Source: an uncultured bacterium
Lineage (GTDB): Bacteria; Hydrothermota; UBA3072
DNA length: 64,000 nucleotides
Assembly (NCBI GenBank): GCA_964525555.1
Contig: CAZGHN010000006.1
Coordinates: 74,805-138,804, forward strand
Reading direction: 5' to 3'
Shown here: one piece after another, positions 7,369 through 61,826 of the stretch
How positions within the stretch are numbered: the first letter of the stretch is position 1
Layout: every line of letters starts with the position of its first letter
The notes under the pieces: model-generated
Told to the model about the DNA's origin: nothing
The model's database searches: none
Seen by the model: only the letters and a program-made list of their open reading frames with translations
Translations under genes and position numbers: made by a program

Positions 7369-7449
7369 TTATGAATGTTGAATGTTAAATGTTGAATTCA
7401 AAACTCAAAATTCAAAATCCTAAATCCCAATTTGAAGGTTTAAAGCAGA

Positions 7450-12173: not shown

Positions 12174-12205
12174 TTAACGCGGCACAGCCGCGTTAATTTT
12201 GAATG
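12174..12205 (+). terminator. intrinsic terminator ending the por-mglBA operon
   Basis: Perfect 10-bp stem TTAACGCGGC-aca-GCCGCGTTAA followed by a T-rich run. Confidence 0.65.
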
Positions 12206-12235
12206 TTGAATTTTAAATTTTGAATTAGGAATTCC

Positions 12236-12583: not shown

Positions 12584-12721
12584 TTTGTACCTTTTGTTAG
12601 TTCAGAATTCTAAATTAATAATTCATTACTTTTTTTAAGTTTTTCATTCAAAATTCAAAACTCAAAATTCAAAATTGTCATAGTTCATAATTATTATCAT
12701 TTTTGGATTTCTCTATATACT

Positions 12722-28196: not shown

Positions 28197-28203
28197 ATTG
28201 GAG

Positions 28204-28348
28204 ATAGGATTAGAAGCAGTGCAAGTCAGCAGTTCTGGGATTATGGATTAAGTGGTAAGTTAAAATTTAGTCCAAAGTCCAAGGTCCTAAGTCCAAAGTC
28301 TTGAGTCAAAACTAAATCCTAAATCCCAAATCAAAACCCCTAGTATTA
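28204..28348. repeat. ~145-bp interspersed element (family R1, subtype ii)
   Basis: Near-identical to 29061..29204; together they flank gene 28440..28970 as direct repeats. Confidence 0.75.
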
Positions 28349-28439
28349 CTGATTTACTGATTCACTAATTTACTGATATACTGAAATTCCATTTCAAATA
28401 TTCAACAATTCGACCATTCAACTGATCCGAAGGATCTTT

Positions 28440-28970: not shown

Positions 28971-29060
28971 ATAGTCCTCCTTTTTTATTAATGAGTGTAA
29001 TAAGGGGTACCGAGTCTGTCAAGATGGGTTTAATTCTCACACTGAGACACAGAGACCAAA

Positions 29061-29204
29061 ATAGGATTAGAAGCAGTGCAAGTCAGCAGTTCTGGGATTA
29101 TGGATTAAGTGGTAAGTTAAAATTTAGTCCAAAGTCCAAGGTCCTAAGTCCAAAGTCTTGAGTCAAAACTAAATCCTAAATCCCAAATCCAAACCCCTAG
29201 TATT
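29061..29204. repeat. ~145-bp interspersed element (family R1, subtype ii)
   Basis: See 28204..28348. Confidence 0.75.
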
Positions 29205-42123: not shown

Positions 42124-42140
42124 ACTGCTGAAAGCAGTTT
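42122..42140. terminator. hairpin between convergent topA and S8 peptidase genes (weak terminator candidate)
   Basis: AAACTGC-tgaaa-GCAGTTT stem-loop overlapping the topA stop; no clear T-tract. Confidence 0.3.
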
Positions 42141-42405
42141 ACAGTATATCAGTGAATTCGTGAATCAGTAAATTAGTATACTTATTTTACTAATAACTAA
42201 GTAATGTTGCCTTTGTGTGAGAAATTAGGTTTTAGGTCTTTGGTTTTGGGTTTTAGTAAAGAAGAAAATAAAATCTCTACATGTTCTACATGTTAAAAAT
42301 TAAATGGGGTGTGTTGTGTTTTAAATAAACACACATCATTCTTTTTTTCAGTGTGCTCTGAGTTTTTTTCTTTGTGCTCTCCGTGTCTTTGTGTGAGAAT
42401 CTATT

Positions 42406-44967: not shown

Positions 44968-44990
44968 AAAACCTCCATGGTTATGCTTAT

Positions 44991-45019
44991 ATTATGCGAA
45001 ATTTTACTCGATATGTCAA
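44991..45019 (-). promoter_or_regulatory. promoter TTGACA-N17-CATAAT for the S8 peptidase gene
   Basis: Minus strand GTGGCAAAA...TTGACA(45019-45014)...CATAAT(44996-44991); RBS GGAGG before ATG 44967. Confidence 0.45.
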
Positions 45020-45043
45020 TGGTTTATTTTGCCACGAAGACAA

Positions 45044-45180
45044 ACAAAAAACATTTAACACAGAGTACACAGAGAAAAACAAAAAACACAGAGATCACAG
45101 AGAAAAAACTATGTTTCGTGTTTTTAAAACCCAACCCGCCTCAGTTAATTTTTCACATGTAGAACATGTAGGTATTGTAG
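45044..45180. repeat. ~137-bp interspersed element (family R2): four CACAGAG boxes plus conserved block with CATGT-AGA-ACATG palindrome
   Basis: Over 90 percent identical to 60998..61134; both sit just upstream of promoters of secreted-protein genes. Confidence 0.8.
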
Positions 45181-45411
45181 TTTTGTTTTTTACAATTTAA
45201 CTATTTTTCTATTTAACAATTCAACTGATTCGAAGAATCTATAACACTGATTCACCGATTCACTATTTTACTGAATCACTGCTGTCTATTGATGCAATTT
45301 TTTCATAAGTGATACCGTTGATATTTTCATTGGTGACCCCAATTATACGCCAATTACGCAATTACAGAAGATTCAAAACCAATTTCATTGATATTGAATA
45401 TCAAAGTAATC

Positions 45412-46716
45412 TTAGTCAGATACCTTGGGTTCCCATAATTTTAGTTCGCTTATACATGCGTCATTATATTTGGAACCCTTGTATATATCTTTAATAATGA
45501 ATTTGACGGATTTAGTAACATGTGGTTCGATTTTAATCTTTTGTAAATCCATAGTATCTTTTAAATCTAGATTCATTGTTGAGCCATCCGAGAATGATAT
45601 CTCAAGGGTTTTTATTCTATTATTGGCATTAAATATGGCTTTTGATTTAGAGTAACCTGAAATGATATCAATTCTTTCGATATTATATTCCTCATCGAAA
45701 TCCAATTGTATCCATTCGCCTATACCGTCTCCTTCCGAACCTTCAACCCAGGCTGTATTATCATCATTATCAAATATATTGTCTATATCATATAAAAACT
45801 TGTTATTTTTATCGGTAAGAGTAGAAGAGCAGGTCACTTTCATATGATGTCTTTGAATTAACCCTTCGTTTTTCTTTAATTCCGCGATAATATTGTCTAA
45901 GTCTAACTCATAACAATCGACAAGTAGCCCGTTATCTCTGTTTTTCTCAAGGAAATCTATGACTTCCGGATTACAGATTTCTTCTATGTGAGAAAGGAAA
46001 TCATCAATTGGATAATAAACATCAGGTTTATTTATACTTTCTTCGAACGAATTAAGAATAAAATTAAGATTTTTCTCGTACTCATGATTGACCAGACAAT
46101 AAGCTTCCGCAATCGCTAATTCCTCTCTTATTCCCTTTGGCTTGAAATTCTTTAAAACTTCTACAATCCTTTTATCTCGTAATTCTGCCAATCTCCATAA
46201 AATTGGTAATGTAGATATATTTTTACTTTTAAACGGACCATCGAATGGACTCTTATTATCTTTATTGTGTAATTCATTATAGAGTTCTTGCATAAGATAG
46301 TCAAAAACTTTTGGTTTATTTATCTTCTCTAAAATAGATAAAGCAATATATAATGAATATTCACCTTTTTCGATATATCTCTTAACTTTACTATATAAAT
46401 TTGATTTTCTATCTGATGATATTTCTTTTAGAATCGACTCAAATAAATGTAATAATTTCTTTTCTTCAATATCGTCAGATAGCGAAAAGCTTTCAATTAT
46501 ACTTTTACTGGCTTCATCTGTACCAATCTCAATTAAATTTTCATAAGCTTGTTTTATTTTTTGATGATCTTCTTTGGTATTGATGCCTTCTGCAAGAATA
46601 TTTCTAATAATATTAGCGTGACGTTCAACATCTAAATCTTGTGATTTGTCTCCATTTGCTGATAATTGATAGCAAGAGCTAACAAAACATAGAATTATAA
46701 GGATACACGTTTTCAT
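45412..46716 (-). CDS. lipoprotein with helical N-terminal region and C-terminal galactose-binding/discoidin-like domain
   Basis: Lipobox LCFVSSC; C-terminal NTAWVEGSEGDGIGEWIQLDF...ISELKLW. Confidence 0.45.
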   Translation of the reverse strand: MKTCILIILCFVSSCYQLSANGDKSQDLDVERHANIIRNILAEGINTKEDHQKIKQAYENLIEIGTDEASKSIIESFSLSDDIEEKKLLHLFESILKEISSDRKSNLYSKVKRYIEKGEYSLYIALSILEKINKPKVFDYLMQELYNELHNKDNKSPFDGPFKSKNISTLPILWRLAELRDKRIVEVLKNFKPKGIREELAIAEAYCLVNHEYEKNLNFILNSFEESINKPDVYYPIDDFLSHIEEICNPEVIDFLEKNRDNGLLVDCYELDLDNIIAELKKNEGLIQRHHMKVTCSSTLTDKNNKFLYDIDNIFDNDDNTAWVEGSEGDGIGEWIQLDFDEEYNIERIDIISGYSKSKAIFNANNRIKTLEISFSDGSTMNLDLKDTMDLQKIKIEPHVTKSVKFIIKDIYKGSKYNDACISELKLWEPKVSD

Positions 46717-46784
46717 ATTCTATACTCCTTTTTTAGATTTAACGCTCAGTGTTAAGTAATTCATGGTTCTAAGATTTATCAGCG

Positions 46785-47738
46785 TTATTCCCAATAATAG
46801 TTGGGTCCGGCAAGGTCGGTTTTCGGATTAAACACCCGGGTGTTATCTGTTGGTGAAAGCAAAGATTGTAATGTATTATCTTCGGTAAACATTATATAAA
46901 TGTTATCTTCTTTAGGGTCGAAATCTTTGAAGTTCGCGTAAAAAGCTTTTTCATCTTCTCTGCTCATGAAAAGTACGCATCCTGCACTTTTTTCACCAAA
47001 GTGAAATAAACATAAAGTTTTATAATTTTTACCCGAGGCTGATTGAGTCACTGTTAATGAAATTTTAGTCCCTATTTCATTTGGCCACAAGTCTTTTCCA
47101 CCACGATCAGAAGCGTCAAGATTAGCTATATAAAGTGGAACTCCCTTGTTGGTTTTTGTAAATGTATTACTTTCCTTAAACACACCAGCATATTTAACAT
47201 TTGATGGCACAGATAAATATGGCTTGCCATTTTCTGCTGATGTATTTGCTTGACTATTTACCCTAAATTGAGAATTTAAGATAAATTTGTCATCCGCTGT
47301 CAGCCTTAGATTATCACAGTAACCTCCCGAATACCCAACATAATTCCTTACTACATTAATATTATAATCGGTTAAGCCACCAAGGTCAATTCGATTAATC
47401 GGATCATTTGTCGCGTACACATAAGGATTTAGACTTTGTGGGCCGGTTAAAAATAAATCTTGAGGCATAAGCGTATGCGGATCAGGGGTTATAAATCTCC
47501 CGGTATTACTGCTATAATACCTTGCTCCAAAGTAATTGAATCCAGACTTATCTTTTTCCTTTCCGGTGAAATCCCTATTGTCTTCAAGTGTTCCTGAAGT
47601 GCTTAAATTTATACCAAAACTCTCATATGACTTCTCCTTCACAATATCATCCTCATCTGTAATCATAATGGGGGAACCCAGTCTGTCAAGATGATAGAAA
47701 TACAATTTCCCATCCTTTTCTTTGGCAAGGAGGCGGTT
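46785..47738 (-). CDS. orphan rhs C-terminal cassette (start-less): core end (YFYHLDRLGSP...DPINRIDLGGL) plus unique toxin tip
   Basis: Frame opens directly after a stop; homology to rhs begins at NRLLAKEKDGKLYFYHLDRLGSP; no ATG or RBS. Confidence 0.6.
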   Translation of the reverse strand, partial: NRLLAKEKDGKLYFYHLDRLGSPIMITDEDDIVKEKSYESFGINLSTSGTLEDNRDFTGKEKDKSGFNYFGARYYSSNTGRFITPDPHTLMPQDLFLTGPQSLNPYVYATNDPINRIDLGGLTDYNINVVRNYVGYSGGYCDNLRLTADDKFILNSQFRVNSQANTSAENGKPYLSVPSNVKYAGVFKESNTFTKTNKGVPLYIANLDASDRGGKDLWPNEIGTKISLTVTQSASGKNYKTLCLFHFGEKSAGCVLFMSREDEKAFYANFKDFDPKEDNIYIMFTEDNTLQSLLSPTDNTRVFNPKTDLAGPNYYWE

Positions 47739-47755
47739 TTAAAAGAATTTAATAT

Positions 47756-48781
47756 TTATTTTTTAAGGTTAACCAGAAAAACTTTGTCCTTTGAATCTTT
47801 ATCACGCATTAAAAAAACTATCTTCAAACCATCAGGAGACCATTTAGCTGCATGGTTTTTCCTGTATTCTTCTTTGAACCCAAATATTTTCACTGATTTT
47901 CCGGTCTCTAAAGAATATATAAAGACTCCTTCGATAGTTGAATATACCAATTTTTTATCATCCGGAGAAAATGCGCCTGGTGCGAAACCTGGTAGGTATC
48001 GAAAATTATCATCGTTAAAACTAAATAACTTAATATATTTTAAAGTATTAACATTGTAAATCCAATATTCATAAACCGAATTCTCATTTTCAGAAGGCCG
48101 ATAACTAGCATAAAATAAGAACATATTTCCGTCCGAGGACCATACTGGATCCGGATAAGCGGATTTTAAGTCTGTAAGACCGGGAATAACTACTTTTTTG
48201 AATTTCTGCTCTTCCAGATTAAAAAACCACATTCTTTCATCGTAATTTGGTTCTCCCGTCAATGAATCCCTTGGATTACATAAGTCTATAACAATAAAAA
48301 GATCGGTCCGAGTTCCAAAATTTATAGCGCTATTATCGCTGGCATACCTTTGGAATCCCTCAGGGAGACTAACGCTTTTCTTCTCTCCTGACGGATATTT
48401 TATTCTAAGTGTATCTTTATATATCCTGACCACGTATTCCCTGCAGGGACTTACAGCCCAATCATATCCAAACTTCTTAATCGTGTCTACATCAAAGACT
48501 TCTTTTATATTCTCCTTGTTCTTACAATTATCATAGTATAATCTTATAAACTCCATTTCATTAATGCGTAAAGAATCTTTAGTTTCCAGGTCAAGAAGAT
48601 AATATTCGTTATAAGGTTTATATATGGTTTTACCAGAACCTCTATATAGGATTTTATTGGATTCAGTCCACTCATATAGGTATTCTATCTTGTCCGCTTC
48701 AAATATTGCCTGAGCTTTGTAATAGTCAGAGCTACACATACTTATGGTTAGACAGATTAAATTAAGATTAAATAGAAACAT
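47756..48781 (-). CDS. PD40/TolB-like beta-propeller lipoprotein (candidate immunity protein)
   Basis: Start at ATG 48781 with RBS GGAGGA; lipobox LTISMC; repeated SPDG/SSDG motifs. Confidence 0.55.
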   Translation of the reverse strand: MFLFNLNLICLTISMCSSDYYKAQAIFEADKIEYLYEWTESNKILYRGSGKTIYKPYNEYYLLDLETKDSLRINEMEFIRLYYDNCKNKENIKEVFDVDTIKKFGYDWAVSPCREYVVRIYKDTLRIKYPSGEKKSVSLPEGFQRYASDNSAINFGTRTDLFIVIDLCNPRDSLTGEPNYDERMWFFNLEEQKFKKVVIPGLTDLKSAYPDPVWSSDGNMFLFYASYRPSENENSVYEYWIYNVNTLKYIKLFSFNDDNFRYLPGFAPGAFSPDDKKLVYSTIEGVFIYSLETGKSVKIFGFKEEYRKNHAAKWSPDGLKIVFLMRDKDSKDKVFLVNLKK

Positions 48782-48862
48782 CTTGTTTCTCCTCCAATTT
48801 TTCATTTTTTTATATTAAAGATAATACATTTCTATACTTATTCATACTTACCTTAACTCATT

Positions 48863-50383
48863 TCACAATGGAGAAATATAAGGTTCAGGCTCGAAAGACT
48901 CAAAAATCGCTTGCGGTGGATCTTTCATTACTTCGCAATCCTCAGGCGTCTCTTCTGAATCATTCTTTTCGAGTTCATCAATTTGACCTGTTAAATCTTT
49001 CATATCATCATTTGATAACCTTATACACCCATTGGTAGCCCTCAGTTCTTCTGTAGCCTCGGAGAGTTTTCCTCCATGGATTCTAAATAAATCACGATTA
49101 GACTTCTTTGCTTCGCCTGATTTTGGGTCAAGAAGTATTTTTCCGTTAGGACCAAAAGAGCTTAATTTTTTCCCTGTCAATTTCGATGTACTTTGTCTTC
49201 CTGTTATGTCGTAAGTTCCGTAAGGGGTATCTCCATTTTCAGCCATCCTGTCTCTATGATTTCCTCTCCCTAAGGCATCCCAGCTTTTAACAACAATTCC
49301 CTGTCTATTGCGTAAGTATAACCTACCAGTCGTACTACGGTCGTCAGAAAAAGCAACATCTATAGACCATAAACCATTCGGGTCTACACGCGTAAGTGGC
49401 GCATTTAAACAATACACATAAGGATTCAGTTCCTGTGGGTTAGCTAACTTCAATCCTCCAGGCATCAATGTATGCGGATCGGGGGTCAGGAATCTTCCGA
49501 TACTACTACTATAATACCTCGCACCAAAGTAATTGAATCCAGACTTATCTTTTTCTTTACCGGTGAAATCCCGATTGTCTTCGTTAACACCCGTACTACT
49601 AAGGGCAGTACCGAAACTCTCATAAGATTTTTCCTTCACAATATCATCCTCATCTGTAATCATAATGGGGGAACCCAGTCTGTCAAGATGATAATAATAG
49701 ATGTGTCCGTCTTCATCTTTGGCAAGGAGACGGTTTCCCGCATAGAAATACTTCTTCGGAGGAGTTCGCTCTGAACCCGATTCGCATCGGGCGTTATCCA
49801 CCCATAATTTTCCGCCGCCTAACATTCTTGCTATATGAAACTTAAAATTAGCCGCGCCTGAAGGGATATCTCCAGGATTTATCGTTACTGAAATCTTCAT
49901 CCAGTTATTTGTGCCTGTTATTATAGCCGATGATTTCCCTCCGAAACTCTGGGACCAATCCGCACTCCAGAAATCGACCATTACTTTCACTCCTCCCGAT
50001 AGATTTTGAGTCTTTACCCAGACGGAAGCGGTAAAGGGTTTTTTTACCTCTGATAATGAATTATGCTGTATCATGAGTTCCGTTGTGCCCATAGATTGAA
50101 AGAATGGGGAGTATAGGCAATATTTACCTTCCTGGGATTGCTGGGAGGTCACAGACCAATTAAAATCACCTTCCCATTGTCCCCAGCCCGTCTTATCTCC
50201 TGTTTCAAATCCGGGATTTTCAAGAATATTAGGTGAATCATCATCTTCTAAGATGAGGTTGCCCGCGTTATCATGGAAATAATTAATTATTTCAGTATTC
50301 GAAGTAGGACAGTCGGTGATCTCCTGACGAATTCTCGGATATCCTTTATAGGAATATTTATAATTACACAAATATGTCCCGGA
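48863..50383 (-). CDS. orphan rhs C-terminal cassette (start-less): CBM4/9-like domain, rhs core end, L,D-transpeptidase-fold toxin tip
   Basis: Homology to full-length rhs from YKGYPRIRQEIT onward; YYYHLDRLGSP...DPNGL; tip contains HGG-x17-TNGCIRL (YkuD catalytic signature); only a TTG at 50371, no RBS. Confidence 0.6.
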   Translation of the reverse strand, partial: SGTYLCNYKYSYKGYPRIRQEITDCPTSNTEIINYFHDNAGNLILEDDDSPNILENPGFETGDKTGWGQWEGDFNWSVTSQQSQEGKYCLYSPFFQSMGTTELMIQHNSLSEVKKPFTASVWVKTQNLSGGVKVMVDFWSADWSQSFGGKSSAIITGTNNWMKISVTINPGDIPSGAANFKFHIARMLGGGKLWVDNARCESGSERTPPKKYFYAGNRLLAKDEDGHIYYYHLDRLGSPIMITDEDDIVKEKSYESFGTALSSTGVNEDNRDFTGKEKDKSGFNYFGARYYSSSIGRFLTPDPHTLMPGGLKLANPQELNPYVYCLNAPLTRVDPNGLWSIDVAFSDDRSTTGRLYLRNRQGIVVKSWDALGRGNHRDRMAENGDTPYGTYDITGRQSTSKLTGKKLSSFGPNGKILLDPKSGEAKKSNRDLFRIHGGKLSEATEELRATNGCIRLSNDDMKDLTGQIDELEKNDSEETPEDCEVMKDPPQAIFESFEPEPYISPL

Positions 50384-50405
50384 CTAAAATGTGTAGTTAA
50401 GTGAT

Positions 50406-50726
50406 CTACTCGATTTCTATCTCAATCCCGCCTATTTTTCGGGAAAGGAAATTGTAGAAAAGTCCTCCTAATAATCCAAATAAAAATCCACCAGTACCAT
50501 ACATAATTGGAAATAAAATGAAGCTTACTCTTCTATATATCCAGGATAGTATTGTCCCAGACAGCATAGGAGAATATCTTCCATATTCTGTTCCTATATA
50601 TATGCCTATTATTACGCCTGGAATAAGATAAAGAAAAGCGCAAATCTTCGCTACTGAAAGTACTCCTACTTTTTTTATCTCTACTACCTTTTTACCCTGT
50701 AATTCTTCTTCTTGTAAAGCTATCAT
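50406..50726 (-). CDS. small two-TM membrane protein (candidate immunity protein)
   Basis: 106 aa with two hydrophobic helices; lies between toxin cassettes. Confidence 0.4.
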   Translation of the reverse strand: MIALQEEELQGKKVVEIKKVGVLSVAKICAFLYLIPGVIIGIYIGTEYGRYSPMLSGTILSWIYRRVSFILFPIMYGTGGFLFGLLGGLFYNFLSRKIGGIEIEIE

Positions 50727-50742
50727 TATTTATTATCCCCTG

Positions 50743-51834
50743 TTATTTTTGAGGATACCAGGAGATTTCTCCGCAAGAATAAGCGTGAATCCCTATAATT
50801 TTTCTCTTATTTGTCCCGTTGTTATTCATAACCCAGATTTCAGTATATTTATCATCCTCTATCTCTTCTACAATATATGCGATAAATTTATCATCAGGTG
50901 ATACCATGGGAGAATACTCATATATATCTGGCGAATTTGTCAGGTTCTTTTGGTTTTTACCATCACTATCCATCACAAAAATTTCACTTGGGAAATCTTT
51001 GGTTTCCCTTTTTATACTCCAGTCTATACATCTGCTAAAATAGATTTTCTTGCCGTCATTAGACCAACAAGGATCAAAATCAGGAAGATTATTATTTGTC
51101 AGTCTTTTATATTTTCCGTTCTCTATATTTATTACAAAGATCTCTGAGATAGAAGATTCAAAGGCAGTTCTACTTAGAGAGTCCGGAAGGGTGTAAGGGA
51201 GCCTTGTTTGTTCCGCTTCTAATTGTGTACTAAAAGCAATTTCTTTTTCATCCGGAGAAAGAGCAAAATCACCATAAAAGTTAGCTAATTCAGGACTTAT
51301 TTTCATGGCATTAAAAGAGATTTTGGACTGGACAGTGTCATGAACTATAAACTCATATCCGTCAAGATTAAATATAATCTTTCCTGAAGAAGTAGGTGCT
51401 ATAGAACAAATAATTCCATCTAGGTCTTTATATTTCTCTCTCTCGCTTTTTGGAAGGTTTTCCCAGCATCTAATTATTCTTCTTGTTCCCGTTGTATTCA
51501 TAATATAAATATCTGGATCATCTTGCCAACCCACAATACCATCGTCATATAAACCGGTCTCAAACCTTGTCCCAAGAAATAAAATTCCCGAGCCATCTGG
51601 TAACCAGACAGGATCTTCCAGAGGGTATCTTGTATTAGTTAACTGATATAGAGTATGAGGCGAATCTACTTTAACTGCAAATATCTGGGGATCTTTAATC
51701 GGATTACTGTTTGTATCCGCGGTAAAGAGTATAGTATTTGTGAAATCCACATTAGCCGGCAATTTCTCTACTTCAGCGTTACATCCGGTTAAGATTACAA
51801 TGAAAAGAAAGAAGACATTTATTTTTTTAATCAT
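50743..51834 (-). CDS. PD40/TolB-like beta-propeller lipoprotein (candidate immunity protein)
   Basis: Start at ATG 51834 with RBS GAGGAG, 11 nt after the stop of cassette 51845..53086; lipobox ILTGC; repeated LPDG/SNDG/SPDD motifs. Confidence 0.55.
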   Translation of the reverse strand: MIKKINVFFLFIVILTGCNAEVEKLPANVDFTNTILFTADTNSNPIKDPQIFAVKVDSPHTLYQLTNTRYPLEDPVWLPDGSGILFLGTRFETGLYDDGIVGWQDDPDIYIMNTTGTRRIIRCWENLPKSEREKYKDLDGIICSIAPTSSGKIIFNLDGYEFIVHDTVQSKISFNAMKISPELANFYGDFALSPDEKEIAFSTQLEAEQTRLPYTLPDSLSRTAFESSISEIFVINIENGKYKRLTNNNLPDFDPCWSNDGKKIYFSRCIDWSIKRETKDFPSEIFVMDSDGKNQKNLTNSPDIYEYSPMVSPDDKFIAYIVEEIEDDKYTEIWVMNNNGTNKRKIIGIHAYSCGEISWYPQK

Positions 51835-51844
51835 TATGCTCCTC

Positions 51845-53086
51845 TTACCAGTTTTGAATATCCTGAGGTATGACTTGAATATTTCCGTTATCATAAGACC
51901 CAATTGGACTATAACCACTAACTGCGTTATAATGTTGAAGGAAATCATTATCATATTTGCCTCCACCTCTTTTAATAAGACTCTTCGGATCTTTTCCTCG
52001 ATGTACTTCCTTTACAAATTTTTTCATTCTTGCAAGTTCTATCTCTGCTACCTCTGCTCCGTTCTTCTGGTCTTTATAAACTTTACTAAGATCTAGCCGG
52101 TCGTAACCCTCATAACCTGGCACTATTGCTTCCTCATGTTTGTGAGCAAACATTCCCATGCAGATTTTATCTATATCCCCTTCGCGGATTGTATTCATAG
52201 TACTAAAAAGGGTAACAATTCCCCAGAAAGCAGTAGTTGGAACGCCGGTAAATGCCGCCCCAGCCCAAAACCAATCTTCACCTGTTACAATTTCTGCGGA
52301 GGGGTAAGGTATCTCTTCAGGAGCTGTGGTTAAAGCTCCTGGGAAACGTCTCCTAAGGGTTAAAAATACACTACCCATTGGTACTATCGAACCAGCTGTT
52401 TCAGCCGTCCCTCGACCCAAAGTTACCCTATATACCATATTATCTGTAGTAGTGCGGAATAGGCCTTTCTTATCCACATAATACAACGGATCATTTGTGC
52501 AATAAACATACGGATTAAATGTTTGCGGGTCCGAAAGTTCCAAATTCCCCGGCATAAGCGTATGCGGATCAGGGGATATAAATCTTCCGGTATTACTACT
52601 ATAATACCTCGCACCAAAGTAATTGAATCCCGACTTATCTTTCTCTTTACCAGTAAACTCCCTATTATCCTCATGAGTCCCACTTGATGAGACCACCGCT
52701 CCAAACCCTTCATACGTTTTATCTTTCACAATATCATCCTCATCTGTAATCATAATGGGGGAACCGAGTCTGTCAAGATGATAATAATAGAGATGACCGT
52801 CTTCTTCTTTGGCAAGGAGACGGTTTCCCGCATAGAAATACTTCTTCGGAGGAGTTCGCTCTGAACCCGATTCGCATCGGGCGTTATCCACCCATAATTT
52901 TCCTGAACCGGATAGTTTTATAAGCATTACCTTAAGGGCTTCTACTTCCCATTCGGGCATATTTCCTTCATCTACCGTTAACAATATCTTTTGCCAGTTG
53001 TTTGTTCCTGTTATTGGATTAGATGTTATAAATTTGTTATGACCGATAGAGAGTAAGAATTGTCCAATGTCGAGATGCGACCCCAA
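51845..53086 (-). CDS. orphan rhs C-terminal cassette (start-less): partial CBM-like domain, rhs core end, unique toxin tip
   Basis: YYYHLDRLGSP...NDPLYYVDKKGL; frame opens after stop at 53087-89 (TTG only); 5' end abuts tandem repeat 53079..53151. Confidence 0.6.
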   Translation of the reverse strand: MGSHLDIGQFLLSIGHNKFITSNPITGTNNWQKILLTVDEGNMPEWEVEALKVMLIKLSGSGKLWVDNARCESGSERTPPKKYFYAGNRLLAKEEDGHLYYYHLDRLGSPIMITDEDDIVKDKTYEGFGAVVSSSGTHEDNREFTGKEKDKSGFNYFGARYYSSNTGRFISPDPHTLMPGNLELSDPQTFNPYVYCTNDPLYYVDKKGLFRTTTDNMVYRVTLGRGTAETAGSIVPMGSVFLTLRRRFPGALTTAPEEIPYPSAEIVTGEDWFWAGAAFTGVPTTAFWGIVTLFSTMNTIREGDIDKICMGMFAHKHEEAIVPGYEGYDRLDLSKVYKDQKNGAEVAEIELARMKKFVKEVHRGKDPKSLIKRGGGKYDNDFLQHYNAVSGYSPIGSYDNGNIQVIPQDIQNW

Positions 53087-53151
53087 TTACACACGACCCC
53101 AATTACACGACCCCAATTACAACCCCAATTACACACGACCCCAATTACACA
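53079..53151. repeat. tandem repeat, about five copies of a 13-16-bp unit GACCCCAATTACAC(AC)
   Basis: Direct reading of 53079-53151, ending in inverted GGGGTC. Confidence 0.8.
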
Positions 53152-53576
53152 AGGGGTCAACTTTATTGTATCCAAATTTAAAAATCACTTTGCTGTGATC
53201 AATATAAAATAATTTGCTGCGATTAATAATCCCCTCCTTAATTTAAGATTCTTTATAATTAAAAAATATGTATTTGAAAATAAATGTCAATAGTGGTATG
53301 CAGGGAATATATCGAACGAAGAATTATAAAAAATAGAAGAGGAATCACCCAGAAATGTTTTTAATATTAATTTAAACAGGAGGTAAAAAAAGATTAATTT
53401 AACCCCACCCCTTGACACTTTTCAAAGAAGGTCTGACCCTGTTGCCCCCACTGTTGCCCCCAGAGAAAAGAACGCACGTTAATCTTGACCCTAGATACAT
53501 AGATACACTCATTATACTCCAGCATCATAATCTTAAACCCTTGATTTTTATTTGTAAACCAATATTATTAAAAGAC

Positions 53577-54755
53577 ATGAAAGAAGTAAATTTAGGAAAG
53601 AGAATAAAAAAACTGTTCCTTTTTCATATAGTATTTCTTGGTGTAATAGTATTTATTTCGTGTTCACGAGAACAAGGAAACAATGCAACAGTGAAAGTTG
53701 AAATTCCAATCGATTCTAAATCTAATATATATGAACTAATTTTAAAAGAAAAAATTGATTTTAGTCATTTAATCAAAAAAGCTGACTCATTATTTGATGT
53801 TGGAGAATATGTTAAAGCCGAATCTCTATATAATAAAGCGCACAATCTTTCGCTGGAATCCGGTAATAAAAAATTAATCGGAGTTACTTTAATTGGTATC
53901 GGAGCGTCTAAAGATAGACAATTTGAATATGAAGAAGCCATTGAGATATTTAACAACACAATGGAATATAAAAGTTTAATGGATAATCCTAGTTTATATC
54001 TATTGTTTTTTAACAAAGGTGTTTCTTTACAAAAAACAGATAAGCTGGAAGGCGCATTAAATTCATATAAGAATGCAATTCTAATAGATTCTAACTTAAC
54101 GGAAGCTTACATTAATCTGGCAAAAATTTACTATAGTGAAAATCAAAAAGATAAAGCATTTAAGGAACTTTCTAAAGCGATTGATTTAGGTTCTAAATAT
54201 TATGATGCTTACTTAGGAAGAGGTATTATCTATCTTAAGAAAGAAGAATATCAGAAAGCTTTAAAAGACCTCAATTTCGCTATAAAGCTGAATCCAAAAT
54301 CTGTTAAAGCCTATAAAGCACGTGGAATGATTTATGGCGATGAAGGAAAGATTGAAAAAGCTTTATCTGACTTTAATAAAGCTATAGAATTGGAACCCAA
54401 AAATTCCGACCTTTATTCTTTAAAAGCGTTTATTTTTTACGAAAAGGAAAGTTACAATAAAGCTCTCCGAAACTTAAATAAAGCAATTGAATTAAATTCT
54501 AATTCTCACAAAGATTACCACCTTAGAGGTATTATTTATGGGAAGAAAGGTAAATATGATCAAGCAATAGATGAATTTACCAAAGCAATCAATTTAGAAC
54601 CCCAAAGTTATGAATCATATTATTTCAGAGGTTTGTCTTACGCTAATAAAGGTAATTATAAAGAAGCAATAACTGATTACAAAAAAACATTAGATTTGAA
54701 TCCAAGATTTGATGAAGCACAGGAAAGGCTAAGAGAATTAAAACAATTTAAGTAA
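53577..54755 (+). CDS. TPR-repeat lipoprotein
   Basis: Start at ATG 53577 (signal/lipobox VFISCS) instead of track TTG 53412; at least eight TPR-like 34-aa repeats. Confidence 0.65.
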   Translation: MKEVNLGKRIKKLFLFHIVFLGVIVFISCSREQGNNATVKVEIPIDSKSNIYELILKEKIDFSHLIKKADSLFDVGEYVKAESLYNKAHNLSLESGNKKLIGVTLIGIGASKDRQFEYEEAIEIFNNTMEYKSLMDNPSLYLLFFNKGVSLQKTDKLEGALNSYKNAILIDSNLTEAYINLAKIYYSENQKDKAFKELSKAIDLGSKYYDAYLGRGIIYLKKEEYQKALKDLNFAIKLNPKSVKAYKARGMIYGDEGKIEKALSDFNKAIELEPKNSDLYSLKAFIFYEKESYNKALRNLNKAIELNSNSHKDYHLRGIIYGKKGKYDQAIDEFTKAINLEPQSYESYYFRGLSYANKGNYKEAITDYKKTLDLNPRFDEAQERLRELKQFK

Positions 54756-55248: not shown

Positions 55249-58200
55249 TTACCACTCAATTTCTTCAAACCTATAAATCTTCCCAGAATCCCAGTAATAA
55301 GTCGCACCTAACATAGGAACATAAACACCACCTTCCGTAGTCCAACCACTTCCAAAGAAATAATCTCCTTGAACGCCAATTATAGAGCCTCCGGCTGTCT
55401 CAATAGACTTTCTGGTCAGGCATTTTGAAAGTTCGTCTTCAGTTGGCGCTCGACGCCATCGGTTCATCTTACACATAGTACCCGCTGACAAACTACCAGA
55501 TAAAGGTATTAAAGATTTTCCCAGCTGTGGGCCATGTCCAAAGTACACATTCCCATACCTATCCAACTTTAAATTTATACTATATCCAATAATAGATCCT
55601 AAATTAATAGTAAGATTAAGATAATCAGGCCATTGTCCTCTCCAAAACTCATTAACAGCTTCTTGCATCGTAGGTCCTTGATAAATACCAAGATAAAAAC
55701 CCAAATAATTGAAAAAATGATACGGATCCATACTTGATGCGGTAACGATAATAGGATCCATTAAAAATATATCATCACCTATTTGGGTCGGTTCCAATCC
55801 CCATGGGTCAAAGAAATTTACTGGATCGTTATGGCAATACACATAAGGATTAAGTGTCTGCGGACGCTCTAAATTCACAAGTAGTGGATACAAGTTAATC
55901 GGATCAGGTGTAAAAAACCTACCGATATCCGCACTGTAATACCTCGCTCCAAAATAATGGAAACCGGTCTTATCTTTTTCTTTCCCAGTGAATTCACGGT
56001 TGTCATTATATGTACCATTGGACCAGCGTAAATTCCCAAACGCCTCATATAATCTTTCTTTTACAACATTACCATCTTCATCTGTTATCATAAGCGGTGA
56101 ACCGAGACGGTCAAGATGATAAAAATGAAGGTCTCCGTCATTTTCAGTCGCAAGAAGACGGTTCCCCGCATAGATATATCTTTTGGGAGCTGTAGTCTCA
56201 CTATCGTCATCCTCGAGAATGAGATTACCCGCGATATCATAGAAGTAATTAAAAATTTCCTTAGTTCCTGCCGGATACTGTGTAATTTTCTGTCTTATTC
56301 GCTGACTCCCTTTGTAATAATAATTGTACACTCTATCGGTTTCCATTGAATTAAGCGAAACAAGATTTCCATCCACATCATAGGTAAGACTGGCATCTTC
56401 CGAGACGCTGGTAAATCCATTTATCCTGCCATTTTCATCGTATGAATAGTTAAATTCACCGTCATTCTTTAACCTGTTGGTTCCGGAATAATAAGTATAA
56501 TTAGTACTATTGACGCTTTTCCTATTTCCGACCGTATCATAGGTGAAAATGAGTGTGTAACCCGGAATATAGGGATAACGACCGTAATAAATATTTTTCT
56601 TATCCTGCGTAAGTCTTCCGAGTTTATCGTATTGGTAAGATTTTACAATATCTCCAGGCCCGTCATCATGCCTGACTTCTTGATACACCTCTCCTCGTTT
56701 ATTGTAGCAAAATTGTGCTATATAGGGGTTGGCGGAAGGAATATTCTTTATTTCCATCCAGTACATCCAATTCCTTGGTCTATATGCAAATGTATCGGTA
56801 ATTCCACCGGGGAAATTTATGCCTCTTAAGAGGCCTGCTGCTGTGGATGAAAGATTGATCGTTTTGTAATCGTTAATTTCTACCGACGAGATATTGCCAA
56901 GTTTATCATATTCATATTCGACTTTGTACTCGTCCGGGTATTCCAGTTTAGTTAATCTTCCCCACAGATCGTAGGAATATTTGAATGTCTGTTCATCTAT
57001 ATCACCAATTAATGGTATTACAAGCTTTTCCCCAAGGTTTCCGAATTTATCGTAAAAATATACTTCCCTTACATTTGGATTTTGGAAACCCGTAAGTCTT
57101 CCTTTTGGAAAATTTAATCCTGAAGGTGCAGTATAAGGTGTACCTTTTATAGTATAGTTATCGTAGAAATATTCCTCCAGTGTATCAGGGAAAAACATGT
57201 AGCTTAATGAATCGTTTGTTATCACAAGGACTGATTTAATTGAATCTAGCCAGTTTTGTGATCCATGTGCAGGATAACCAGGAATAGCGGAATCAGTATG
57301 TTGGATCGCCATCCCACAAATAGTATTCCCAATATAATCCTCGCCTGGGTAAAGAAGAAAAGAATGATCTTGTTGCCAGGTTTTATTAATTGAAGAAAAG
57401 CCTTCTTGAATGGTGAACTCGCTACCAAAAGTATCGGCCGGATTTTCGAAATACACGAATAATGAACATATTCCGAAATAATTAGGAGGGTCAAATACCC
57501 AGGTTTTTGAATTAAATCTTATCCTTATCTCTTCACCTTCATCTTGCATTACATTTGCATCCTCAATGTCCCAGTATAGCCGACCAAGTTCGCGGTGGGG
57601 ATACATCCAGCTTTTACCAGGCACATACAATAAAGTGTCTTCAACCATATAGAATAGTGTATCCGGAGCAGGATCATGTATAGCCGGATTGATTTTGGTT
57701 TTTAATCTACCAAGATTATCATAAGTATAATAGATTGAATCACCGATATTTGTTCTACGAAGCTTTAAATTCCCATCAGGATAATATTCGAATGAATCTA
57801 CGCCTCTGTCAGGACCTTCTCTACGGATTAGTTCACCTAACCAGTTATAGTTAAAATCAGTGAATTTTCCTTCTGCGCCTTCAATTTCTATTAAGTTTCC
57901 GTTTGCGTCGTAATCGTAATAAGTATGATAATCGAGAGCATCTATGACCTCTACCAAGCTGCCTGTTGCATCGTTAATTAATGTGGTATAATATCCTTTC
58001 TCATCTCTTACATCTGTTATATTCCCATTATATTCATAGGTAACAAATTCGGCTCCAGGATCTTCAGAGCTTTTGGGATATTCTATCTCGGTTACTCTTC
58101 CAAGTGCATCGAAAGTCTTTTTTACTGTGTCCGCGTTTGCTGCACTGTTAAACCGTAGTGCTGTTTCCTTATTCATACGCCCATTATTATCATAAAAATA

Positions 58201-60846
58201 TTCCTTTATTACATGCTCGCCAGGATCTCCTAATACCGAATCTTGTTTAAGCCTTCCTAACTGGTCGTAACAGTAGATTATAGTGCTTGAGTCCGAAGAA
58301 GAAGAAAAAGATTTTGCTTTTGCAATCCTGTCGAAATCGTCATATTTATATTTGTTTAAAACATCGCTGCCGATTTTATCCAGAGTAAGTCTTCCGTAAC
58401 AATCATATTCGAATTCTCTTGAAACTTCATTCTTATCAGTGTGCCCTATAAGTTGCCCATCCGAATTAAAGTCGAAGTCCTCTTTTGAGCCATCAGGATA
58501 TATTACTGTGTCAGGGAATACCTCATTAGAACAGTAATCGAATTGAGATTCCTCTCCCATGTAATCTCGCATTTTTACTAGATTCCCGCAAATGTCATAC
58601 CAGTATTCCTGTGTACGGGATTCGGAATTGTTTGTCCATTCTATTTTCTTGGTGAGGTTCCCGCGGATTTTAAAATCAGCACCAAAGTCTTCAGAATCAT
58701 GAAAACCCGGGTTAGAAATGTTGCTTAAATTAGTTTCATCATACCGAAAATAAGTTTTTCCTATTCTTTGTCCTGTAATTTTAAATTTGTGTATTGCTAT
58801 CGGAAGATTGCACAACACACGATGATGGAAATTCCAACCTCCTTCTCCACCATAGCAATCCTCACACCATTCTGCAAGCTCGATATATAGAGCATCTACT
58901 TCATGTTTAAAATGCTTTATCTCTTTCCAGCTGTCATCTAAATCCAGGTCCTCGTAAGAAATTTTTTCGTTATCAACCTTATCTAAGTCTAAGCCTGGCA
59001 TAATAGCTGTAGTAAATACAGTTAGCAAGTATGGAAAATCAAATTCTTCAATACTTTCCCATCCTATACCTGTACATTCCACATCCCCTCGATAAATGTA
59101 TTCTCTTATATTACCAAACCTATCATAACTGTTATATTCGTATAGTTCTACAATATCTCCAATACCTACCTCAAGATCAGATGGATCTTTCTGTACGGCT
59201 TTGCATTTCAATGTTGGGCGTAAATGAATTGGCGGCATAAACAAATAGAGACTATCTATTGCCCAATATAAACGCGTCAATTCTAAAGTGTCTCCTTCTT
59301 TATCAAATTTTACTACCTTGTAAGGTTTACCGTAAATAAATTTCCTTGCCTTAGGGATGACCCTTTCGGAGATTACCACCTCATCTCTACCTTCATGTTC
59401 GAAAAATCTGTAATGATCCCCATTCTCCAGATATTCATTATTAATATGCCAGTAAACTATACTATCTCCTTCGGGCATAACAACCGCGCATTTTTTATAC
59501 ATGGGATAATATCCAAATATTTGCGAATTTACCCCATGAGACCAATTATCTTTAAAATCTCCATGAGTACATTCCATTTCACCTACAGAACTCACCGCGA
59601 GTGAATCATGACCTGGATAATGATATTCATACACTAAAGTTTTGGAATCCTCAGAAAGAAAAACTTCTTTCTTTTTGATTCTGCGGTATTTGGTAGGCGC
59701 GGCGATGCCTGAGCCAGACACCGTCTCATACTCATAACTGTATTCCGCGCCGTCAGGAGTGATAAATCTGACGAGTTCCCCTGTATTATTATCATAAAAA
59801 AACTGATAAGAAGGTTTCATTTTTTGCCCTTCAAAATGAAAAGATATCGAATCCAGAAGTGCGTGTTCACGAACATACCAGTATTCAATTGCATCGTCTA
59901 AATGTTTAGCCGTATAGTAGAATTTAACCTTGTAACAACCATCGTTTATCCAATGAACTAAGCTATCAATAAGATAAAACTTATCCCAACAAGGCCTATC
60001 TGGGTAAATAGGGTCTAACATTTTAGGATAAAATTTACAGTGAGAGGTAGGAGTAATAATACTATCGGGGATTCTGCCAGCCGGAGGGCAAGGGGCCGCA
60101 TCCTGCCAGGTAAATCGCACATAATTGCCATTCCTGTCCTCCATCTCTGTTAGCATATAATCAAGTCTGCGTCTCTTCTCCGGTTCTGATGGGTACTCAG
60201 GATCGGGACCGTAATCCAGTATATTCTCGAAGGTATATTTATATTCTGGCGTTGCAACAAAAGCTCTAAGATTACTTGCGAAACCAATCCAATTTTTTTC
60301 ACCTAAAACATGCCACAACCAAGCATCAAAAACATTGAAAGTTTTTTGCACAGTGTAAAACTGCCCATTAATACACGTGAAACCCACATCGCCCGTAGCA
60401 ATATTGCCAGTTCCCGGGGATCCGGGAACAGAAAATTCTCCCGGCATTACATTCCAACCTAAACCACAGGTACCTATATCCCCAGTAACCAAAAAAGCAT
60501 CATTTAGCGCCACATTAGAATGCGAATAGCAATCACCTGGAGTGAGCTGCGTCACCGATAAGGGAGAACCTCGATAGGTTAAATATACATTATAATCTTT
60601 ATTTCCTCTCATTGGCAAACTTGTAAGTTTTATTTTGAGAGACACAGTCCCGTTTGAAACATCTATATTTTCCGCAACAGTATTAGTCGATATGGTCGTT
60701 TTGTTAAAACCTACCGAGTATGCATCAAAACCGTGTGAATACATATCCTCAGTAATTTCATCAGAGGTTTTTATTTCAAGCGAATCATAAGCGGCAAGGG
60801 GGTTAGCTACGGAACTCCCAATGTTGCCAAATAAAAATACTATCAT
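55249..60846 (-). CDS. rhs: full-length RHS/YD-repeat polymorphic toxin
   Basis: 1865 aa; many YD repeats (e.g. YEYDANGNLIEI); core end FYHLDRLGSPLMITDEDG...DPWGL followed by a ~230-aa unique C-terminal tip. Confidence 0.85.
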   Translation of the reverse strand: MIVFLFGNIGSSVANPLAAYDSLEIKTSDEITEDMYSHGFDAYSVGFNKTTISTNTVAENIDVSNGTVSLKIKLTSLPMRGNKDYNVYLTYRGSPLSVTQLTPGDCYSHSNVALNDAFLVTGDIGTCGLGWNVMPGEFSVPGSPGTGNIATGDVGFTCINGQFYTVQKTFNVFDAWLWHVLGEKNWIGFASNLRAFVATPEYKYTFENILDYGPDPEYPSEPEKRRRLDYMLTEMEDRNGNYVRFTWQDAAPCPPAGRIPDSIITPTSHCKFYPKMLDPIYPDRPCWDKFYLIDSLVHWINDGCYKVKFYYTAKHLDDAIEYWYVREHALLDSISFHFEGQKMKPSYQFFYDNNTGELVRFITPDGAEYSYEYETVSGSGIAAPTKYRRIKKKEVFLSEDSKTLVYEYHYPGHDSLAVSSVGEMECTHGDFKDNWSHGVNSQIFGYYPMYKKCAVVMPEGDSIVYWHINNEYLENGDHYRFFEHEGRDEVVISERVIPKARKFIYGKPYKVVKFDKEGDTLELTRLYWAIDSLYLFMPPIHLRPTLKCKAVQKDPSDLEVGIGDIVELYEYNSYDRFGNIREYIYRGDVECTGIGWESIEEFDFPYLLTVFTTAIMPGLDLDKVDNEKISYEDLDLDDSWKEIKHFKHEVDALYIELAEWCEDCYGGEGGWNFHHRVLCNLPIAIHKFKITGQRIGKTYFRYDETNLSNISNPGFHDSEDFGADFKIRGNLTKKIEWTNNSESRTQEYWYDICGNLVKMRDYMGEESQFDYCSNEVFPDTVIYPDGSKEDFDFNSDGQLIGHTDKNEVSREFEYDCYGRLTLDKIGSDVLNKYKYDDFDRIAKAKSFSSSSDSSTIIYCYDQLGRLKQDSVLGDPGEHVIKEYFYDNNGRMNKETALRFNSAANADTVKKTFDALGRVTEIEYPKSSEDPGAEFVTYEYNGNITDVRDEKGYYTTLINDATGSLVEVIDALDYHTYYDYDANGNLIEIEGAEGKFTDFNYNWLGELIRREGPDRGVDSFEYYPDGNLKLRRTNIGDSIYYTYDNLGRLKTKINPAIHDPAPDTLFYMVEDTLLYVPGKSWMYPHRELGRLYWDIEDANVMQDEGEEIRIRFNSKTWVFDPPNYFGICSLFVYFENPADTFGSEFTIQEGFSSINKTWQQDHSFLLYPGEDYIGNTICGMAIQHTDSAIPGYPAHGSQNWLDSIKSVLVITNDSLSYMFFPDTLEEYFYDNYTIKGTPYTAPSGLNFPKGRLTGFQNPNVREVYFYDKFGNLGEKLVIPLIGDIDEQTFKYSYDLWGRLTKLEYPDEYKVEYEYDKLGNISSVEINDYKTINLSSTAAGLLRGINFPGGITDTFAYRPRNWMYWMEIKNIPSANPYIAQFCYNKRGEVYQEVRHDDGPGDIVKSYQYDKLGRLTQDKKNIYYGRYPYIPGYTLIFTYDTVGNRKSVNSTNYTYYSGTNRLKNDGEFNYSYDENGRINGFTSVSEDASLTYDVDGNLVSLNSMETDRVYNYYYKGSQRIRQKITQYPAGTKEIFNYFYDIAGNLILEDDDSETTAPKRYIYAGNRLLATENDGDLHFYHLDRLGSPLMITDEDGNVVKERLYEAFGNLRWSNGTYNDNREFTGKEKDKTGFHYFGARYYSADIGRFFTPDPINLYPLLVNLERPQTLNPYVYCHNDPVNFFDPWGLEPTQIGDDIFLMDPIIVTASSMDPYHFFNYLGFYLGIYQGPTMQEAVNEFWRGQWPDYLNLTINLGSIIGYSINLKLDRYGNVYFGHGPQLGKSLIPLSGSLSAGTMCKMNRWRRAPTEDELSKCLTRKSIETAGGSIIGVQGDYFFGSGWTTEGGVYVPMLGATYYWDSGKIYRFEEIEW

Positions 60847-60943: not shown

Positions 60944-60980
60944 ATTGTAGGGAAAATGAAACTTTTGTCAAGAGGTTTTT
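60944..60980 (-). promoter_or_regulatory. promoter GTGGCTAA-N9-TTGACA-N16-TACAAT for rhs
   Basis: Minus strand reading of 60980-60944. Confidence 0.45.
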
Positions 60981-60997
60981 TTAGCCACACCCACCAC

Positions 60998-61134
60998 CAA
61001 AAAACATTCACCACAGAGAACACAGAGAAAAAGAAAAAACACAGAGCACACTGAGAAAAAAACTATGTTTCGTGTTTTTAAAACCCAACCCACCTCAGTT
61101 AATTTTTCACATGTAGAACATGTAGAAATTGTAG
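60998..61134. repeat. ~137-bp interspersed element (family R2), copy upstream of rhs
   Basis: See 45044..45180. Confidence 0.8.
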
Positions 61135-61253
61135 ATACTGTGTTCTCTTTGATTATTTTACTAATTAACAAATATACTAATCAACCAATTAACAGATTCG
61201 AAGAATTTTTGAATCTAAATCAAAAGATGCAATTTTTTCTTAGGCGGTACCAA

Positions 61254-61826
61254 TTATCCTCCATGCATTTTTCTTGATTCTACAATTATTGTATCCGCGT
61301 TAATTATTATGTTTAGTCCTGTTTTTATTTTTTTAAGTTCGGCTCCCATATATTTTACATTTGGAGGATATTTGATCTGGTCGCCAAAATCAAAAATCCT
61401 CATTTTATATCCTTCTTTAGCATCACCAAATAAAACAAAATGAATTACAACTTCATCACCCGAATTAAAACAGGCAATATAATATAATTGGATTGCCCGC
61501 TGTCCTAAAACAGGCAGATATGAATCAAAAACAATCTCTTTTATACCTCCAGATTCCTCGAAGTAAACTTTTTCCATCGCATCTCTGAATTCTTCAAAAG
61601 TAAATTCTTTTAAAAGATCCGGATGAAATTGTAGAAAAACTTCTTTATAATTCTTATTGAAAAGTCCAAAAAGAACCTTGTTGGTAATCGTTACTGCCTT
61701 AAAAGTGTCGTGTTCCAGCTGGCGAACACAATGAGATAGGACAATGATGGACGAAATTAAGATTAAAATTATAAAAGAACACTTTTTCTTCATATATTTA
61801 GTATATTTAGGGTCAAATCGCGGCAT
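61254..61826 (-). CDS. secreted/lipoprotein-like hypothetical protein preceded by an rhs-core-like promoter module
   Basis: RBS AGGAGG 61835-61840; upstream 61853-61881 encodes HLDRLGHPY-stop, homologous to the rhs core segment. Confidence 0.5.
   Translation of the reverse strand: MPRFDPKYTKYMKKKCSFIILILISSIIVLSHCVRQLEHDTFKAVTITNKVLFGLFNKNYKEVFLQFHPDLLKEFTFEEFRDAMEKVYFEESGGIKEIVFDSYLPVLGQRAIQLYYIACFNSGDEVVIHFVLFGDAKEGYKMRIFDFGDQIKYPPNVKYMGAELKKIKTGLNIIINADTIIVESRKMHGG

Follow-up and report, generated by a model that had tools for sequence, protein, structure and literature searches.

A tandem array of repeat heads beside a truncated rhs cassette: probable kinship with dispersed repeats of Y1 transposases

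Introduction

What marks the place where a toxin cassette has lost its front end? The question is raised by a 64,000-nucleotide stretch of DNA from an uncultured bacterium (GTDB lineage Bacteria; Hydrothermota; UBA3072; assembly GCA_964525555.1, contig CAZGHN010000006.1, positions 74,805 to 138,804), which we call the window. In its rhs island, on the minus strand, a tandem array of five short units (53078-53151) lies beside a 5'-truncated orphan rhs cassette. An earlier note on this DNA had placed the array exactly at the truncated edge and proposed that it marks a recombination or deletion breakpoint or serves as a recombinase site. We find that the array has no rhs-specific role. Judging from sequence comparison, its five units are probably clustered copies of a conserved 5' head (TGTAATT-GGGGTC), that of a non-autonomous dispersed repeat of the kind associated with the single-strand Y1 (HUH) transposases of the TIRYT/RAYT type (RAYT stands for REP-associated tyrosine transposase, and REP for repetitive extragenic palindrome).

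TIRYT enzymes are known but have barely been studied. Di Nocera et al. (2013) described RAYT-like genes flanked by terminal inverted repeats (TIRs), named these units TIRtrons and their enzymes TIRYT, for TIR-associated tyrosine transposases, and reported that the TIRs have GGGGWSAS in common and form moderately abundant families, present as single copies, dimers or clusters (PMC3733652). Quentin et al. (2018) identified TIRYT with their Y1 subclass 2.1, in which a Bac_DnaA_C domain is frequent, and found no REP-like sequences near subclass 2.1 genes (PMC6006769). In the literature that we searched, the terms TIRYT and TIRtron occur in these two papers only.

Five repeat heads precede one repeat body

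On the plus strand the array consists of five tandem copies of (C)GACCCCAATTACA(CA), which run c GACCCCAATTACAcac GACCCCAATTACAc GACCCCAATTACA ACCCCAATTACAcac GACCCCAATTACAca from 53078 to 53151, with start-to-start distances of 16, 14, 12 and 16 nt and an A in place of the initial G in unit 4. Read on the minus strand, the unit is the 13-mer TGTAATTGGGGTC, and the five heads take the form (TG)TGTAATTGGGGTCG, one of them with GGGGTTG. Directly beyond the array, aGGGGTC at 53153-53158 is inverted relative to the units; it belongs to a single plus-strand head, GGGGTCAAC (53153..53161), which stands back to back with the array and can form a 6-bp stem with the last unit. The tandem copies and the inverted GGGGTC are therefore present just as the earlier note had described them.

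Tandem Repeats Finder reported a period of 16 or 14 and 5.0-5.1 copies, with scores of 106 (period 16) and 96 (period 14); no other short-period array in the window scored as high. When up to two mismatches were allowed, the 13-mer occurred six times in the 64 kb, five times in the array and once at 45335, whereas shuffled windows contained 1.39 +/- 1.09 copies and 0 of 100 shuffles reached six. The core CCCAATTAC is confined to the array within the window. Thus, the array is real and lies far above chance expectation.

Where does the cassette end? The open reading frame (ORF) called at 51845-53086 aligns by BLASTP with its intact paralogue (48863-50371) from ORF residue 21, which corresponds to paralogue residue 147. 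The cassette is indeed truncated mid-domain: about 146 residues are missing, including most of the CBM_4_9-like domain, and the remaining rhs sequence (51845..53026, minus strand) comprises the tail of the CBM-like domain, the RHS core end and a C-terminal toxin region. Near 53026, some 50 nt short of the array, the coding homology stops. The array thus lies at the boundary of the rhs homology but not exactly at the edge, and the gap is occupied by the repeat element's own body (GCATCTCGACATTGGACAATTCTTACTC..., 53027..53077, minus strand), a non-rhs sequence that has no paralogue homology although it lies within the called ORF. The annotated TTG start at 53086 falls within the last array unit (TAA TTG GGG TCG), and every unit has an in-frame TAA, which closes the reading frame. 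Because the start lies inside that unit, the first 20 codons of the ORF are repeat-element rather than rhs sequence. A database protein, P0001, is 100% identical to the ORF product and likewise starts in the repeat. That ORF callers begin an "orphan" protein inside a repeat calls for caution in rhs biology.

The unit recurs at unrelated sites and beside Y1 transposase genes

Outside the source genome, the closest relative of the truncated cassette is P0002 (73% identity), encoded on L061, a WOR-3-like contig of 13 kb with 37% G+C (loci are given by L numbers). An Rhs core fragment that lies upstream of P0002's cassette breaks off right after ...ARYYAPGIGRF; behind it stand three copies of GGGGTCAAATCTC(A/G)A..., of which the last runs on as CACTTGACAAT. 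This last copy matches the window: its sequence TGTACCTGGGGTCAAATCTCGACACTTGACAAT is identical at 27 of 33 positions to the last window unit plus body, TGTAATTGGGGTCGCATCTCGACATTGGACAAT, with a local alignment score of 36 against 20.2 +/- 2.7 (maximum 30) in 300 shuffles. L061 also encodes a protein with Y1_Tnp and Bac_DnaA_C domains that matches the NCBIfam model "REP-associated tyrosine transposase" at 80.4 bits (cut-off 80), and its gene is flanked by inverted GGGGTCAGACCTTGAAATGTGAAA.

A scan for pairs of neighbouring CCCCAATTACA units, with 1-5 nt between the two, yielded 15 loci in species-representative genomes, 41 in metagenomes and 4 in viral contigs. Of these, 46 are non-redundant, and the source genome is not among them. 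Units at 20 of the 46 loci bear an additional G[AT] beyond the pattern (40/109 units versus 12.5% expected), the other 26 being unrelated tandem duplications, many of them coding and several within coding repeats. An inverted GGGGWC lies within 200 nt in 11/46 loci. The full 13-mer was found at about 20 unrelated non-coding sites in many phyla, in tandem or in hairpin-forming inverted sets, with glutaryl-CoA-dehydrogenase-like, SDR-like and other genes, as read from the sequences, for neighbours. The earlier note had held that occurrence at many unrelated intergenic sites would speak against a junction-specific array; since the unit does occur at so many, it is by that measure a generic dispersed repeat and not an rhs signal.

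A first comparison hinted at coincidence: all-against-all BLASTP of the ORFs of L001-L015 with those of the window from 40 to 64 kb found no protein in common. The link was revealed later by a targeted tblastn search of all pattern-hit loci with the L061 Y1 protein. Homologues were detected in four loci, all of the G[AT] class: L056 (E 3e-37, gene 43 nt from the array), L019 (E 3e-27, a gene fragment about 2 kb away), L008 (E 7e-14, about 4.5 kb away) and L053 (E 5e-9, 63 nt away). On the metagenomic contigs L053 and L056 the RAYT/TIRYT gene directly adjoins the unit, which is identical to that of the window array. L056 has inverted TAATTGGGGTCAGATTCCAA on both sides of the gene. In L053, two copies of TGTAATTGGGGTCA and then a hairpin, GTCAAACCTT...AAGGCTTGAC, stand ahead of the gene start; similarly, in L008 two copies of AATAAAGGGGTCAA and then GTCAAG...CTTGAC stand ahead of the gene. 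Duplication of the head with a period of about 12-16 nt, directly before a body, was seen beside the Y1 genes of L053, L056, L008 and L070, and four-head arrays occur in L008 and L028.

Two homologues of the L056 protein, picked irrespective of the motif, come from Hydrogenophaga (L072) and Rhodoferax (L073); both have TAATTGGGGTCAGATTCCAATTA and a second TAATTGGGGACA just downstream of the gene. Because these motif-independent picks carry it, TAATTGGGGWCA is a genuine terminal repeat head of one Y1 clade. Head arrays can also be element termini, because a non-coding element of about 330 nt, present at 98% identity in L019 (reverse strand, 1025-1469), L043 (1-180) and L047 (150-519), stops precisely where a two-unit ACGTCCCCAATTACA array has its outer edge; beyond that edge the flanks of the three loci are unrelated.

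Long hairpins with variable interiors are found in Limnohabitans, a Halieaceae metagenome-assembled genome (MAG), L020, L040 and L050. In five Limnohabitans-like loci (L001, L030, L036, L039 and L054), orthologous and located upstream of a glutaryl-CoA-dehydrogenase-like gene, a long palindrome of TGTAATTGGGG(T/C)CA heads surrounds GATACCAATTAAT. This palindrome is variable between strains, because the number of heads per arm differs among the orthologous loci and one locus has an internal deletion.

Taken together, these comparisons show a sequence kinship of unit and body with TIRYT/RAYT-type elements, and a physical association of such elements with Y1 genes in other genomes.

TIRtrons of WOR-3-like contigs lie in variable islands

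Homologues of the L061 enzyme fall into more than 7000 clusters, and a match at 84% identity comes from a candidate division WOR-3 MAG; the organism of the window is therefore probably WOR-3-like. WOR-3-like contigs with these genes contain many solo GGGGTCA... copies between genes. In L062 (3814-11493; WOR-3 MAG GCA_039804165.1), a complete TIRtron is immediately preceded by an 1800-aa Rhs gene together with a 221-aa gene and immediately followed by a 171-aa ORF, which has a hydrophobic N-terminus and an HExxH motif. This ORF, which had no match in Pfam or among the fetched proteins, may be a putative beheaded orphan toxin. In L067 a TIRtron lies 2 kb from an rhs cassette. The TIRtrons of L069-L071 sit among toxin-antitoxin and defence genes, without rhs; the association is therefore with variable islands in general and not with rhs alone.

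Two side observations concern these elements. Among the TIRtrons and solo repeats found on WOR-3-like contigs, a duplicated octamer (GTATCAAC GTATCAAC G) precedes the GGGGTCAG head at L061 28-66 and L067 8670-8700 and 6100-6125. Its TATCAAC is one base off the TATCCAC core of the DnaA box TTATCCACA, and a Bac_DnaA_C domain is present in the enzymes; the comparison with DnaA boxes by Quentin et al. was limited to the GGGG motif (PMC6006769). In L070 (96-1069, 3888, 5015), inverted copies of a different repeat, TAGGGTCGGTGCTTGACATTTTGACA, flank a second Y1_Tnp gene, one that lacks the DnaA_C domain; the repeat is also present as solo copies on that contig. Two TIR families thus coexist in one genome.

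How the array may have arisen

The element at this locus consists of five heads and then one repeat body, adjoining the truncated rhs toxin cassette. A Y1 transposase encoded elsewhere in the genome, or once present there, would recognise and cut the heads, which may have multiplied through repeated cleavage and rejoining or through replication slippage. Insertion of the element, or a deletion ending at it, could have given the cassette the 5' edge that it has now; a causal role of the array in the truncation is put forward here as a proposal. Because the terminal repeats that flank Y1 (HUH) genes elsewhere have a head that the unit matches, the "recombinase site" of the earlier note is a reasonable description in a broad sense, whereas a specific link to rhs junctions was not found.

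Several observations weigh against this origin. First, no Y1 transposase gene was detected in the 64-kb window by tblastn, and head arrays occur there at two sites only (53078 and 45335). (In other genomes, inverted units do flank a Y1 gene, on both sides in L056, upstream in L053 and downstream in L072 and L073.) Second, the fit to the published TIR motif is partial: the array units GGGGTCGT, GGGGTCGC or GGGGTTGT match GGGGWSAS at 5-7 of 8 positions and have G, not A, at position 7. (The plus-strand head GGGGTCAA fits at 7 of 8 positions and the element at 45340, GGGGTCAC, at 8 of 8.) Third, the TIRtrons of WOR-3-like contigs have the prefix ATCAACG, not TGTAATT. Fourth, the pattern scan demanded tandem units, so the tandem architecture of its matches is partly a selection effect. 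Fifth, the predicted single-strand fold of 53020-53200 (minus strand) is insignificant (-12.8 kcal/mol, z = -0.09) and contains only the 6-bp GACCCC/GGGGTC stem. Finally, this genome forms many short intergenic tandem arrays anyway, so slippage alone could expand a chance motif.

The last point leads to the strongest alternative, plain slipped-strand tandem duplication, in intergenic DNA prone to repeats, of a 14-16-nt sequence present by chance, with no function and no relation to a transposase. Short tandem arrays indeed occupy at least 10 intergenic regions of the window (among them 437-474, 2023-2054, 7372-7425, 12195-12226, 12646-12676, 28269-28384, 29126-29168 and 42225-42256); most are heptamers (AATTCAA, ATTCAAA, TGAATGT, AGTCCAA, TTAGGTT) and one is the octamer TTACTGAT. 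The 26 unrelated tandem duplications among the scan matches and the insignificant fold also speak for slippage. However, other genomes have the full 13-mer beside Y1 transposase genes, an element at the corresponding position in L061 agrees at 27/33 positions with what follows the last unit, and a second head array of the same type is present at 45335. We consider slippage alone unlikely.

The heptamer and octamer arrays are an observation in their own right. They often lie just upstream of promoter-like sequences, L061 has comparable arrays (TTTCGAG TTACGAG ...), and they represent a genome habit like that of the short tandemly repeated repetitive (STRR) sequences, outside cyanobacteria. Dispersed intergenic modules are also common to unrelated gene starts (28200-28340 and 29060-29200; 437-530 and 2023-2115): a 150-nt unit contains AGTCCAA arrays, and a second module is a promoter-like block, ...CCCTTGACTTATGAGAATGATTTTTTAAATTTTATACTA.

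Is the array tied to rhs after all?

A bolder possibility is that WOR-3-like TIRYT-type elements preferentially land or recombine at rhs arrays, where they would cut and promoter-cap cassettes and help to make or re-arm orphan toxin modules; the head array would then be a scar or landing pad of repeated events of this sort. We offer this as speculation and think it quite unlikely.

Another proposal, in which the array serves rhs loci specifically, as a recombination or deletion signal by which toxin cassettes are exchanged or truncated, would fit its position about 50 nt from the end of the cassette homology, the L061 element that cuts an Rhs core fragment, the complete TIRtron behind the Rhs gene of L062 and its neighbour, and the second head array. 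The latter, degenerate and in the same orientation (GTAATTGC GTAATTGGC GTATAATT GGGGTCAC; 45335..45366, minus strand), closes the far end of the orphan-cassette block. However, the 5' edges of the other two orphan cassettes of the window, near 50371 (cassette 48863-50371) and near 47705 (cassette 46785-47705), have neither the unit nor a GGGGTC head. Because only one of three orphan-cassette edges carries the array, it is not a general rhs junction signal. The unit also stands beside unrelated genes in many phyla, the TIRtrons of L069-L071 lie in islands without rhs, and the neighbourhoods of L001-L015 have no protein in common with the rhs region of the window. An rhs-specific signal is thus very unlikely, and the repeat should not be taken for a cassette-exchange signal.

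We give the faintest chance to a role in regulation, with the array acting as repeated binding sites of a regulator or as a phase-variable spacer of changing copy number, in the 5' region either of the transcript from the cassette or of the TPR lipoprotein gene that diverges from it: the array does lie in a 490-nt divergent intergenic region with a promoter-like site pointing through it (53290-53263), L061 related bodies and TIRtron bodies do contain TTGACA and head number does vary among the orthologous Limnohabitans loci, but promoter-like sites are not enriched in the region (5 versus 3.3 +/- 1.8 in shuffles), no regulator gene is associated and the unit is common to phyla with very different regulators.

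The promoter-like site is TTGACA-16-TATTTT (53263..53290, minus strand; 10/12 matches), and its transcripts would run through the array into the cassette. Between it and the array, a 24-nt direct repeat (AAAATCAATTTGCTGCGATCAATAT, two copies) lies at 53181-53228, and two copies of CTGTTGCCCCCA are found at 53439-53462 in the same intergenic region; both could be operator-like candidates.

Comparison with known systems

Placing the array with the TIRYT/RAYT-type repeats, as we favour, leaves TIRtron TIRs as its nearest counterpart. Both have a head led by GGGG[AT][CG], the unit flanks Y1 genes as inverted repeats in other genomes, and both are found between genes, solo, in dimers and in clusters, and in species that lack classical REPs. 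The window differs in that five direct tandem heads stand alone before one body, its unit has a 7-nt prefix, TGTAATT, conserved across phyla, the consensus at position 7 is G instead of A, and no cognate gene is present. To our knowledge, nobody has shown what a TIRYT enzyme recognises. Our data provide a head conserved across phyla (TGTAATT-GGGGWC), a recurrent layout of several heads and then one body, and arrays that form the exact boundary of a dispersed element; heads and arrays are ready-made substrates for a binding and cleavage assay.

REPs, bacterial interspersed mosaic elements (BIMEs) and REPINs (hairpins formed by REP doublets) are reportedly mobilised by RAYTs (Nunvar 2010; Bertels and Rainey 2011; Ton-Hoang 2012). 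Like the window unit, they are short, non-autonomous, extragenic repeats, often clustered and often at gene ends, and tied to a usually single-copy, domesticated Y1 transposase. Unlike them, the window units run head to tail without alternating and form no significant hairpin. Membership in the REP/REPIN class was rejected on the lack of an imperfect 20-40-nt palindrome and of a GTAG or CGTC tag, together with the fold z-score (-0.09). A REPIN-like hairpin or a terminator is ruled out by the insignificant fold and by a terminator scan of the array region that found none.

The subterminal ends of IS200/IS605 elements are likewise served by Y1 HUH enzymes acting on single strands, and their boundaries are short conserved sequences beside a hairpin; in the window, by contrast, there is no transposase gene between repeats, no asymmetry of left and right ends and no known target tetranucleotide at the array. 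Orphan rhs cassettes formed by core recombination resemble the locus in that a full rhs gene has downstream of it a 5'-truncated core end and toxin, with a probable immunity gene next, but the classical model needs core homology only and no specific repeat, and two of the three edges here have no repeat. Cyanobacterial STRRs are heptamer arrays, e.g. STRR1 (CCCCAAT/CCCCAGT). Likenesses are the short tandem intergenic repeats, the richness of the window in heptamer arrays and the CCCCAAT contained in the unit; the array differs in its period (14-16, not 7), its non-cyanobacterial host and its link to Y1 genes.

Other candidates were dropped. Tn3-family inverted repeats have only GGGGTC in common with the unit, and Tn7-like TnsB sites, attC, dif, CRISPR and, for the TGTAATT prefix, DnaA boxes were set aside on sequence grounds. 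Rfam covariance models gave only chance-level matches to 52800-53700 (E > 1), and a literature search for the unit as a text string returned primers and unrelated matches only.

The rhs island and other features of the window

The rhs island lies on the minus strand and includes the full rhs gene (55249-60846; RHS_repeat, RHS core). A plus-strand TPR gene (53577-54755), whose product starts with a lipoprotein-type signal sequence as read from the translation, is separated from the array by intergenic DNA (53152-53576). The truncated cassette (ORF as called, 51845-53086) is followed, all on the minus strand, by a PD40 protein (50743-51966), the orphan cassette at 48863-50371 (CBM_4_9, RHS core end, YkuD/Tlde1), a PD40-like protein (47756-48805), the orphan cassette at 46785-47705 and an NADase_transloc / F5_F8 protein (45412-46716). 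A PD40 beta-propeller protein thus follows two of the three orphan cassettes (51845-53086 and 48863-50371), and likewise the L061 cassette; these may be candidate immunity proteins. The block 45412-51966 ends with the protein that carries the NADase-translocation F5/8-type C domain.

Two copies of a roughly 300-nt repeat, with blocks of 72-96% identity, are present at 45021-45316 and 60974-61251, in the upstream regions of a subtilase gene (42406-44967) and of the full rhs gene, respectively. The two copies are direct repeats that bracket the whole 16-kb rhs island. The first is headed by a degenerate TAATTGGGGTCAC array; the second begins with ATAATTGG across the stop codon of the gene at 61254-61826.

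GC skew and gene orientation flip near 42-45 kb (region 40000-46000), with plus-strand genes before, minus-strand genes after and a peak of the cumulative skew. This may be a replication terminus or merely strand-biased coding; the rhs island starts directly after the switch. Finally, a 782-aa protein encoded at 3953-6301 combines ThiF (E1-like) and prokaryotic JAB domains, an architecture that recalls ubiquitin-like conjugation or defence-associated modules.

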